DNA of 4,104 nt from a virus (Duplodnaviria; Heunggongvirae; Uroviricota; Caudoviricetes). The notes below the pieces were generated by a model, which saw only the letters and a list, made by a program, of their open reading frames with translations, had not been told where the DNA came from and made no database searches. Positions 2,489-4,104 of this stretch are shown here, piece by piece (position 1 is the stretch's first letter; every line of letters starts with the position of its first letter). Both the position numbers and the translations under genes were made by a program. The stretch spans positions 1 through 4,104 of IMG/VR virus record IMGVR_UViG_2778261572_000005; one strand, written 5' to 3'.

Positions 2489-2704
2489 TTAATTTGTGTT
2501 ATGTGCGCGAGGCGCAACGTTTTCAGAAAAAATATTCACGCCGTTGTAGTCATTTCTCAGTGCTTCCTTGATAACATCATGTAATCCTGTTGCCACCTGA
2601 AACTCCCTTTCGGAAGTGCCGTCCTCCAAATAACTTCCTGTAATCTGGGTTAAAACCCTGCCTTTTTCATTGGTATAGATAATTACTTCTAATTTAACCG
2701 CCAT
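2489..2704 (-). CDS. Hypothetical small protein, 71 aa
   Basis: ATG at 2704..2702 with a good SD (AGAGGAA, about 7-nt spacer); stop TAA at 2491..2489. Sequence looks globular (MAVKLEVIIYTNEKGRVLTQITGSY...). No recognisable family. Confidence 0.55.
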   Translation of the reverse strand: MAVKLEVIIYTNEKGRVLTQITGSYLEDGTSEREFQVATGLHDVIKEALRNDYNGVNIFSENVAPRAHNTN

Positions 2705-2716
2705 TCTGATTTCCTC

Positions 2717-2941
2717 TCATTGCCATACGACGGTACAGCCGTCGATACAGGACGTTTTCACCACACGGCGCAGGCCGCTGAATGTCTGGACGATTTCCGT
2801 TACCGGCCATACCGGACCGCCAGCAGGTGGGCAGGCATAAACCACAGGTAAACGGTGATGTTGCCACGTTACACGACCGCCAGTGGTGTGGATGGCCACA
2901 CGGGCACGGGAACGGACGGCGTTAATGGTCTGCTTGTCCAT
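2717..2941 (-). CDS. Hypothetical small protein, about 74 aa (MDKQTINAVRSRARV...); start uncertain (alternative ATG at 2956)
   Basis: The track ORF (2717..3034) begins with a non-ATG start inside the upstream gene's tail. In-frame ATGs at 2956 and 2941; the one at 2941 has GGAG 9 nt upstream. Only long ORF on either strand in this interval. Confidence 0.45.
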   Translation of the reverse strand: MDKQTINAVRSRARVAIHTTGGRVTWQHHRLPVVYACPPAGGPVWPVTEIVQTFSGLRRVVKTSCIDGCTVVWQ

Positions 2942-2955
2942 CGTCTTGTTCTCCA

Positions 2956-2977
2956 TCAGTGAATTAACATTTCTGCG
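2956..2977. repeat. 22-bp perfect direct repeat, copy 1 (partner at 3329..3350); intergenic relic of the B-gene 3' end
   Basis: TCAGTGAATTAACATTTCTGCG at both sites. On the minus strand it reads CGCAGAAATGTTAATTCACTGA, which at 3329..3350 encodes the B C-terminus (A)EMLIH-stop. At 2956..2977 the same frame is closed by a TAA just upstream, so it is non-coding there. Confidence 0.9.
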
Positions 2978-2982
2978 CTGCA

Positions 2983-3315
2983 TTATCTGAGTGCAAACGC
3001 AAGTCGTGGCTGATAACGGGGAAGGCGGGCACACATACGCGCAAGACGATAAGCCCGACGAAATCCCTGTAAATTCTGCTCAAAAGGAATAATCATTAAT
3101 CGCGCACAGCATTCATCAACGTCCCAGTCATCGCTGGTATTTCCGGTTCCATTGATTTCTCTTTCCCGGGAATACAAATCAATGCGCAGTTCACCCGGCA
3201 CGAAGCAATCAACAAACGGAATAATTTCACCAGGGGTCCCATTAGAATAAATACAACCATTACGACTGATATTCCGTAGCGCTTTAATTTCTTTTCTGAC
3301 GACAACCTGTTCCAT
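2983..3315 (-). CDS. Hypothetical protein, 110 aa, immediately downstream of the B-like gene and bracketed by the 22-bp repeats
   Basis: ATG at 3315..3313, 13 nt after the B stop, with AAAGG/AGG upstream. The C-terminal 30 residues are Arg-rich, so the true 3' end is uncertain. A nested 69-aa ORF (3096..3305, TTG start) is an alternative reading. Confidence 0.45.
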   Translation of the reverse strand: MEQVVVRKEIKALRNISRNGCIYSNGTPGEIIPFVDCFVPGELRIDLYSREREINGTGNTSDDWDVDECCARLMIIPFEQNLQGFRRAYRLARMCARLPRYQPRLAFALR

Positions 3316-3328
3316 ACCTGGCCTTTAC

Positions 3329-3350
3329 TCAGTGAATTAACATTTCTGCG
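3329..3350. repeat. 22-bp perfect direct repeat, copy 2 (partner at 2956..2977); overlaps the last 7 codons and stop of the B-like gene
   Basis: Identical 22-mer, offset 373 bp from copy 1. Confidence 0.9.
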
Positions 3351-4093
3351 AATTTATCAATGGCCTGCACACTGACCGGTGCATCGCTGATATCACAAAT
3401 CCGGTACACACCGCGCGCCAGTTTGAACAGGCGGCGGGCATTACCCAGTGAGCGTGCGTAGAGCGCCTCGCTGATTTCCGGTTCTGCTGCTTCCGGCATC
3501 AGCCCGGTAGCTATCTGGTTAAAATCTTCCTGCGACAGCGTATCGCCCAGGTTAAGCGCCAGCGCCACACGGCTGTATAACTGGGCGAACTCACCGCGAC
3601 GTCCCTTGAGGTTAATCAGAAGGCGTGGCATACCCGCCAGGACAATCCCGATACCCGCTTTGTCATGCAGACGGCGCAGAACCTCCAGTGCGCGATAGGG
3701 GAGCAGTTCAGCCTCGTCCACCATCAGCAGGCGACCGGAATCACGCAGTTCTCGCACACATGCATCAATCAGTTCGTGGATATTGCCGCGAACTTTTACC
3801 CCCAGCTGGCGGCACAGCTCCTCAAGCAGTGTTCTGGCTGTATAGCCCGGGTCGGCTTCAATCAGGACCGCATCCCGGTTTCTGCGGGCGTATTCACGCA
3901 GAATCATTGTTTTGCCAAGACCTGCCGCGCCATACAGTACGCAGATTTCACATTCCAGATGAGCATAGGCCAACACCTCCAGTCCTTTGGCAGCCATACC
4001 GGTGGCAACAAATTTCGCTTTAATACGGCGGCTATTTTCCTTTTCCCGCTCACGGGTCACAAAGGCAGAAATGCGTTCTTCAATATCAGCCAT
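3329..4093 (-). CDS. MuB/TniB-like AAA+ ATPase (DNA transposition protein B-like), 254 aa as drawn; 5' end may extend beyond the window
   Basis: Walker A GAAGLGKT (nt 3908..3931) and Walker B LLMVDEAE (nt 3707..3730). Overall pattern resembles Mu B / TniB-type transposition ATPases. ATG at 4093 is preceded by AGGG, but the frame stays open to the window edge at 4104. Confidence 0.85.
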   Translation of the reverse strand: MADIEERISAFVTREREKENSRRIKAKFVATGMAAKGLEVLAYAHLECEICVLYGAAGLGKTMILREYARRNRDAVLIEADPGYTARTLLEELCRQLGVKVRGNIHELIDACVRELRDSGRLLMVDEAELLPYRALEVLRRLHDKAGIGIVLAGMPRLLINLKGRRGEFAQLYSRVALALNLGDTLSQEDFNQIATGLMPEAAEPEISEALYARSLGNARRLFKLARGVYRICDISDAPVSVQAIDKFAEMLIH

Positions 4094-4104
4094 ATCGCCC
4101 TGAT

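Follow-up and report, generated by a model that had tools for sequence, protein, structure and literature searches.

In phage Mu, the early region is ordered A, B, then kil and a number of small semi-essential early genes, and in Mu-like phages of Pseudomonas pilus-blocking and anti-quorum-sensing proteins are encoded in the early region. In the Mu-like phages of P. aeruginosa, variable genes are found in so-called RGPs, fixed slots of the early arm that contain zero to few short accessory ORFs and are often GC valleys; flanking sequences indicating a mechanism were not found for them and the acquisition was called "mysterious" (Cazares et al., 2014, PMC4378225). A second concept is that of the moron, derived from the lambdoid phages HK97 and HK022 and, as quoted in the same article (Cazares et al., 2014, PMC4378225), describing an extra gene with its own promoter and terminator and a deviant composition. 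Established explanations for the mosaicism of temperate phages are homeologous or short-homology recombination and the exchange of modules at short conserved stretches (Martinsohn et al., 2008, PMC2327257, and work cited there). Here, we describe a locus at which a gene of 110 aa (g110) has quite probably entered the junction of B and kil by recombination with a g110-bearing Mu-like genome, a 22-bp repeat being the scar of this event.

Results and Discussion

Judged by its gene content, the window, i.e., the whole stretch of 4,104 nt that was analyzed, represents the early (transposition) operon in a Mu-like Escherichia coli prophage, since in relatives genes for a Ner-like HTH protein and a Mu-type A protein lie upstream and genes for GemA and Mor downstream. 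All genes of the window are located on the minus strand and follow each other, from right to left, in the order B, g110, a Kil-family gene, a 71-aa gene, a DUF3164 gene, the gene of an ANR-family regulator, a 63-aa gene, a 177-aa gene, a 121-aa gene, and the start of a DUF2786 gene. Of B, which encodes a Mu B-type transposition ATPase, the window contains the 3′ three quarters (3329–4104), the gene running off its end; the protein, annotated with 297 aa in relatives, matches PF13401 (AAA_22, 5.6e-23) and phrog_296 ("DNA transposition protein", 3e-84). A Mu-type transposase A gene (Mu-transpos_C) is located directly upstream of B in all relatives inspected. The Kil-family gene (2717–2941, minus strand, 74 aa), in the following called kil, matches phrog_2679 ("Kil protein for bacterial septation inhibition", 4e-33) and, together with the small early genes downstream, including those for DUF3164 and DUF2786, it complements the B ATPase and the upstream A to a Mu-like early gene set. 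No deposited phage has a B protein with more than 64.5% identity, the best match being a Klebsiella prophage-derived phage, and tblastn searches with g110 and Kil against 50,697 phage records yielded no match for either.

The slot of the DUF3164 gene (1815–2459 of the window) is occupied by a Phage_Mu_Gam gene in the Salmonella-type loci L008 (5385–5909) and L010 (5418–5942), and Phage_Mu_Gam, in some Salmonella-type relatives, and DUF3164, in the window and most relatives, apparently substitute for each other at this position. An exact 14-mer, GTTTTCACCACACG, which encodes RVVKT on the minus strand, is common to the 63-aa gene and kil (1505–1518 and 2754–2767). Paralogy of the two proteins was considered and rejected, BLASTP revealing no similarity beyond the shared 14-mer, and the match is probably due to chance.

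The 22-mer CGCAGAAATGTTAATTCACTGA is present twice on the minus strand, at 2956–2977 and 3329–3350, with zero mismatches and a spacing of 373; coordinates, strand and description of this repeat in the earlier note were all correct. No third copy was found in the window, even with three mismatches allowed. Copy 1 (3329–3350) comprises the C-terminus of B and its stop, i.e., the last seven codons (..F-AEMLIH-stop), the initial C belonging to a TTC codon as its third base, and the same 22-mer forms the 3′ end of B in two relatives with an empty site (L001 and L004). Copy 2 (2956–2977), in the following called the relic, is non-coding, as had been noticed before, its frame being closed two codons upstream by the TAA of g110 (2983–2985); from this stop into copy 2 the sequence reads TAA TGC AGC GCA GAA ATG TTA ATT CAC TGA. 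The repeat ends sharply, with the flanks of the two copies differing at once on both sides, and g110 (2983–3315, minus strand) is indeed the only conserved gene between them. That the copies match by chance can be dismissed, since two matches were reached in 0 of 200 dinucleotide-preserving shuffles and the polymorphism among relatives described below is exactly one repeat period.

All parts of the junction can be assigned on the minus strand. Copy 1 is followed by the 13-nt leader of g110, GTAAAGGCCAGGT (3316–3328), which contains a Shine-Dalgarno-like AAGG 6 nt before the ATG and is homologous to the leader GTAAGGATTTATGT of the Salmonella type. The accessory gene g110 itself is followed by the spacer bases TGCAG (2978–2982), which travel with it, being also present after g110 in Salmonella-type loci. 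The relic consists of two parts. Its first 9 nt, CGCAGAAAT (2969–2977), match the B 3′ end at 9/9 positions and the spacer of the putative donor type, CGGAGAAAT, at 8/9; its remaining 13 nt, GTTAATTCACTGA (2956–2968), are non-coding, are not present in Salmonella-type and Cedecea loci and can be derived only from the B 3′ end. The relic borders on TGGAGAACAAGACG (2942–2955), the native B-kil spacer with the GGAG ribosome-binding site of kil, which is found in identical form directly after the B stop in empty-site relatives. After g110, the window reads TGCAGCGCAGAAAT-GTTAATTCACTGA-TGGAGAACAAGACG-ATG(kil). One repeat period corresponds to a unit of 373 bp (2978–3350), which relatives either have in full or lack altogether.

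Prophages of the E. coli type have an ATG in the kil reading frame that overlaps with the TGA of B or of the relic, TGATGGAGAACAAGACGATG (2951–2955 of the window, TGATG on the minus strand), and the same TGATG bases are present at the B/kil junction of empty-site relatives. To judge from these bases, a Kil protein longer by five codons is possible, the stop-start overlap being typical of translational coupling; the kil start that is conserved across other lineages is the downstream ATG. The RefSeq annotation of Kil differs between relatives, with 228 nt (75 aa) in L002 and L003 and 225 nt (74 aa) in L001 and L004.

Relatives in which B is directly followed by the homolog of the gene at 2717–2941, with a single 22-mer, had been predicted, and such relatives do exist. 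A junction query of 901 bp was compared by megablast with 5,426 complete E. coli genomes, 58 of which matched. Ten of these are filled, i.e., they contain g110 and two copies of the 22-mer, and 48 are empty; among the complete E. coli genomes the cassette is confined to these ten and is always located at the post-B site. In 41 of the 48 empty genomes, the query matched in two pieces with a genomic span equal to the query minus exactly 373 bp. The other seven matched on the kil side only, their B allele being too diverged for megablast, and for two of these seven the annotation was checked and places kil directly after B. In these seven genomes the matches do not extend past query position 278. 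The possibility that the 22-mer marks a mosaic boundary there was considered and rejected, the stop being trivial, since the query runs on into g110, which is missing there, and B is too diverged for megablast.

In the empty form, as aligned for L001 and L004 (alignment A1; strains 20KM0223N and E2348/69), B ends with ...CGCAGAAATGTTAATTCACTGA, followed by TGGAGAACAAGACG and the ATG of kil, and the 22-mer is single. Adjacency of kil and B was found in L001, L004, L017, L018, L023, L050, and L051. The closest comparison is provided by the near-isogenic pair L005 (filled) and L051 (empty), which share one B protein accession and one Kil accession and whose junctions differ by one exact gap of 373 bp between flanks that are 97–100% identical. 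The 22-mer does not occur at many unrelated loci: exact matches in IMG/VR were located only at B 3′ ends or relics, on 13 contigs representing nine empty and four filled prophages. Nor do all relatives have the same arrangement, most of them having the empty form. Elsewhere in the Enterobacterales, B and kil are direct neighbors in L017, L018, L023, and L032 (Erwinia, Mixta, and Pantoea being empty), and in L020 and L022 the slot holds members of an unrelated 131/160-aa family. The B-kil spacer of the Mixta locus L018 is homologous and 14 nt long (TGGAGTAACGGGTC), and from this similarity the empty junction looks old.

Some of these genomes showed additional features. Downstream of kil, L005 and L051 are distinguished by another indel, of 446 bp (L005, 2771–3218), which contains two small genes and marks another plasticity slot of the same operon. 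Two of the ten filled-site matches (NZ_OZ547097.1 and NZ_OZ547049.1) are on records of ~249 kb that are classed as plasmids; the Mu-like element can thus sit on large plasmids besides chromosomes. The prophage of E. coli RM9088 (L003) is interrupted by two copies of IS1A, one in the transposase A region (2163–2860) and one beside the 71-aa gene (4936–5633), and this copy is probably defective.

Direct repeats around a single inserted gene are a classic signature of transposition, and a transposable or homing element carrying g110 might accordingly have produced the repeat by duplicating its target site. At 22 bp the repeat is, however, far longer than the target duplications of known IS elements or of Mu, which amount to 5 bp in the case of Mu. 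In addition, g110 has no signature of a transposase, nuclease or integrase in Pfam, PHROGs or NCBIfam, the 373-bp unit lacks terminal inverted repeats, g110 was seen only directly after B, and relic-free copies of it occupy the same site, which makes this explanation highly unlikely. An integron gene cassette was also considered and rejected, the 22-mer not being palindromic and the junction RNA/DNA being without a significant fold. No integrase was found near any locus examined.

As an alternative to an insertion, it had been suggested that the 22-mer is a functional site that constrains the B C-terminus. In this case it would be a protein-binding site, an RNA structure or a translation-initiation context upstream of both g110 and kil, which overlaps the C-terminus of B by chance. 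A start codon does follow each copy after 13–14 nt, with a ribosome-binding site just downstream of the TGA, and B alleles that are otherwise diverged hardly differ in their last ~20 nt. In the L002-type prophages of E. coli, the stretch at 2969–2977 reads CAGAGAAAT and the relic matches the 22-mer at 20 of 22 positions; these two differences between the window type and the L002 type are fewer than expected from synonymous sites of g110 (P ~0.03), so some constraint on the relic is possible. The same two differences show, however, that the relic does vary, and its divergence is as expected from the adjacent kil. Moreover, kil homologs of Salmonella-type, Cedecea and Erwinia loci have quite different upstream sequences without the 22-mer, and at the B terminus it is the amino acids MLIH that are conserved, whereas the synonymous sites vary in other Enterobacterales (CTC ATT CAC, CTT ATT CAT, TTG ATC CAT). 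The RNA of either junction folds no better than shuffled sequences (z +1.8 to −1.2), and a search of Rfam with the window gave no credible match, the two hits below E = 1 reaching about half of their gathering thresholds and overlapping neither copy of the 22-mer. The suggestion of a functional site found little support, and we consider it quite unlikely. A weaker role of the relic, as a mild upstream context of the kil ribosome-binding site, is conceivable.

The origin of the repeat becomes apparent from loci that contain g110 in another arrangement. In Salmonella-type prophages (L006–L010 and L149), g110 is located between B′ and kil′ and followed by the spacer TGCAGCGGAGAAAT(C/T)AT(C/T)-ATG(kil′), without GTTAATTCACTGA and without a second copy of the repeat; this spacer resembles the CGCAGAAAT of B. 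The Cedecea locus L015, with a 46%-identical homolog of g110, has no relic either. At the protein level, the identity between window and Salmonella type is 75–80% for g110 as compared to 50–53% for B and 61–64% for Kil, so the histories of the genes disagree, whereas identities to Cedecea are similar for g110, B and Kil (46, 52, and 56%). In 30-nt windows, the identity to three Salmonella-type loci is 0.73–0.93 from ~3350 to ~2969, as opposed to 0.33–0.43 just outside this block in B and 0.2–0.6 in kil. The left edge (~3350) coincides with the first base of the B copy, the right edge (~2969) lies in AGAAAT inside the relic, and the block of raised identity is bounded by CG[C/G]AGAAAT at both edges. 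From these edges it follows that the unit moved between the lineages equals one repeat period. The left boundary can be placed no finer than the last ~21 nt of B, because the amino acids AEMLIH are conserved anyway. A 15-nt scan of IMG/VR for the 3′ end of g110 returned mostly chance matches, with five real loci left after a tblastn filter and no new junction type among these five.

The relic is not a copy of the resident B. In three loci (L003, L040, and L049) it ends with ..TTCACTGA (CAC-TGA) even where the B of the same prophage ends with ..TTAAGTGA (AAG-TGA), the B end of RM9088-type prophages being ..ATGTTAATTAAGTGA; since the relic kept its CAC-TGA next to such a B, it has to be regarded as an inherited fossil.

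The duplication is most likely the scar of a short-homology, off-register recombination between two Mu-like genomes. The donor would have been of the type still seen in Salmonella-type prophages, B′ - g110 - TGCAGCGGAGAAAT CATC - kil′ without a repeat, and the recipient of the type ...TTCGCAGAAATGTTAATTCACTGA-TGGAGAACAAGACG-kil. At the right-hand crossover, the donor spacer CGGAGAAAT would have paired with the look-alike CGCAGAAAT inside the B 3′ end of the recipient, missing the homologous GGAGAA ribosome-binding site located 22 nt further on. We place the crossover at 2969–2977, because this stretch matches both the B 3′ end and the donor-type spacer. As the right joint would have been out of register, the last 13–22 nt of the recipient's B would have been kept 3′ of g110 as a non-coding relic; by sequence comparison, the 13 nt of GTTAATTCACTGA are probably the only ones that must derive from the B 3′ end, the first 9 nt coinciding with the donor spacer. 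The left-hand joint would lie within the last ~21 nt of B, which are common to both parents. The two copies of GTTAATTCACTGA would hence stem one from each parent and not from a copying of recipient DNA. Subsequently, the 373-bp unit would have spread or been lost among E. coli-type prophages, either through ordinary homologous exchange within B and kil or through deletions with end points in the 22-bp repeats, and all or some of the empty E. coli-type sites could in principle be secondary losses of the latter kind.

In this scheme, the repeat, its presence or absence by one period, the relic-free sister clade and the boundaries of the identity block are direct observations, from which we infer the order of events, the crossover point and the kind of recombination system that acted; a recognizable recombinase of the Red-beta/RecT type was not found within the window. 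The closest relic-free copies of g110 are 77–80% identical in DNA, no near-identical donor having been found. The insertion of a cassette directly after B by recombination, as proposed in the earlier note, is supported by the single-copy relatives, the 373-bp difference and the lower GC content of the cassette. Its second proposal, that the insertion duplicated the junction, holds insofar as the repeat is a recombination scar; a copy-paste of recipient sequence is probably not what happened, with one copy coming from each parent.

The order of events can also be turned around. In that case, g110 would have been inserted together with the duplication of the B 3′ end in a common ancestor, and the Salmonella type would have lost the relic later by a small deletion between the 6–8-nt direct repeats GCAGAA and GGAGAA; the repeat would still be a recombination scar, only an older one, with the relic-free form being of opposite polarity. 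The junction sequences alone fit this reverse history equally well: the Salmonella-type spacer GCAGCGGAGAAATCATC can be written as the left end of the relic fused to the kil ribosome-binding site, and a deletion between short direct repeats at a distance of 22 nt is plausible. However, a gain and a loss make two steps instead of one. According to the g110 identity matrix, the sister group of the E. coli clade, whose members always have the relic, is formed by the two Salmonella types, in which it is never found, and Cedecea, also without relic, stands outside, so that a single gain in the E. coli clade is the shortest history. Furthermore, dS of g110 between the E. coli and Salmonella clades is saturated (~1.0), yet the relic is still identical to the B 3′ end of the window at 22/22 positions. 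A neutral copy as old as this split should have decayed, and the relic therefore appears to be younger than the split, which renders the reverse order unlikely and leaves the recombination of a relic-free donor with an empty recipient as the preferred reading.

A second duplication of a junction is present in the window at 696–784 and 1309–1397, with 68 nt of exact match plus a diverged extension and a spacing of 613 bp. It brackets the 177-aa accessory gene, the minus-strand genes concerned being located at 793–1326 and 348–713. Each copy contains a hairpin and a ribosome-binding site and includes the first six codons (MKDKVW) of the next gene; these six residues are the only ones that the 177-aa and 121-aa proteins have in common. 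Relatives contain neither extra gene, the 177-aa gene alone or both, and the copy number of the repeat matches. The scar is of the same kind as that formed by the 22-mer, except that here it is the downstream gene whose 5′ end is duplicated, and the presence of such a scar around another accessory gene indicates that the process recurs.

The hairpin core, GGCGTAAACCCGCCGGGGCTGGCTTACGCC (minus strand, ~733–763 and 1346–1376), is also present 3′ of the 63-aa gene in L001–L014 and L016. The core shows 100% identity in loci of the Salmonella type and of Kluyvera, where the genes around it reach only 70–76%, and 94% identity in Edwardsiella. Its fold is only moderately stable, and the search of Rfam gave no credible match for it, a sub-threshold Lnt hit (E 0.98) overlapping the hairpin. 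The element is strongly conserved and non-coding, and might perhaps represent a signal for RNA processing or termination or a recombination joint. On a broader reading, the early region would exchange accessory genes via dedicated "linker" sequences, serving as the recombination joints of a cassette-shuffling system, with g110 as one cargo with a so far unrecognized early function. Candidates for such linkers would be the conserved B 3′ terminus and the 30-nt hairpin, which is fully identical across lineages with genes of 70–76% identity, and the function of g110 may be, for instance, host takeover, exclusion or anti-defense. We regard this reading as speculative and rather doubtful.

With regard to g110 itself, a dN/dS of 0.09–0.14 against four homologs and the existence of a protein family argue that it is a real gene. 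An exhaustive profile-free search yielded a family of 19 cluster representatives at 50% identity with 86–111 aa, one of the 19 being a 573-aa protein with several short matches, and the motifs EIxALR, PGxLxVDxYS, DWDVD, and FRRAYRLARL are conserved. Index entries of the exact protein exist for 224 blocks of the assembly collection; its near-identical homologs are from E. coli. Directly after B, homologs are encoded by Salmonella-type prophages (75–80% protein identity), by Cedecea neteri (46%) and, with 130 aa and ~35% identity in the aligned part, probably by Edwardsiella hoshinae; among the loci examined g110 was not found at any other site. The gene thus occupies a variable slot, not in every prophage but repeatedly, and did not enter the phage gene pool from outside as a single import.

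Profile searches with g110 in Pfam, PHROGs, PADLOC, and NCBIfam gave no match, i.e., neither to a known anti-phage defense nor to an annotated phage family, and there was no significant match in the PDB by sequence or profile and no significant fold match in PDB or BFVD. g110 would be translated from the early transcript via its own AAGG ribosome-binding site. An early host-takeover or other host-directed role, or one in exclusion, is a guess from the position after B. Since this post-ATPase position often holds early host-directed functions, the family, which is small, conserved, wholly unannotated and encoded right after the transposition ATPase, is a candidate for testing.

The earlier note had taken g110 for an inserted moron, a claim that applies in part. 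The gene is inserted between genes that are adjacent in relatives (48 of the 58 E. coli genomes and several other Enterobacterales), and its composition is unlike that of the adjacent genes: GC and GC3 are lower in g110 (45 and 37%) than in B (55 and 56%) and kil (59 and 60%). Other variable small genes of the window are GC-poor as well. A promoter and a terminator of its own were not found in a consensus scan of 2600–3600, in which a single weak promoter-like site lies inside g110 and points to kil, compared to 1.3 sites expected from shuffles, and no terminator-like site is present. For this reason g110 is not a strict moron, and with a gene family that recurs after B, the term in-operon accessory gene of a plasticity slot fits it better.

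Comparison With Known Systems

The acquisition of single genes by phages usually remains invisible, because the joints carry no signature. At the B-kil junction, both parental arrangements and the recombinant survive, and the joint can be read to ~9 nucleotides. The locus is thus a clean worked example of a known process; it establishes no new principle and leaves the current understanding unchanged.

In its gene content, the locus is like phage Mu, with transposase A, ATPase B, a Kil-family gene and a run of small early genes. In contrast to Mu and other deposited phages, its B protein stays at or below 64.5% identity, and g110 and Kil are without tblastn match. The lambdoid morons resemble g110 in being single extra genes of differing composition between neighbors that are adjacent in related phages. 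Unlike them, g110 is placed inside an early operon, is presumably read from the early transcript, and belongs to a family that recurs at the same slot in several lineages; moreover, the g110 locus has a visible junction scar, which the moron concept does not include. The B-kil slot also behaves in the same way as the RGPs of P. aeruginosa Mu-like phages (Cazares et al., 2014, PMC4378225), although these phages are unrelated at the sequence level and the flanks of the B-kil slot carry a readable scar. A further parallel is the exchange of modules among temperate phages (Martinsohn et al., 2008, PMC2327257), which likewise leaves a block of high identity in diverged flanks, with borders in short sequences common to both parents; what sets the B-kil junction apart is that one joint is 22 nt out of register, and hence the duplication.
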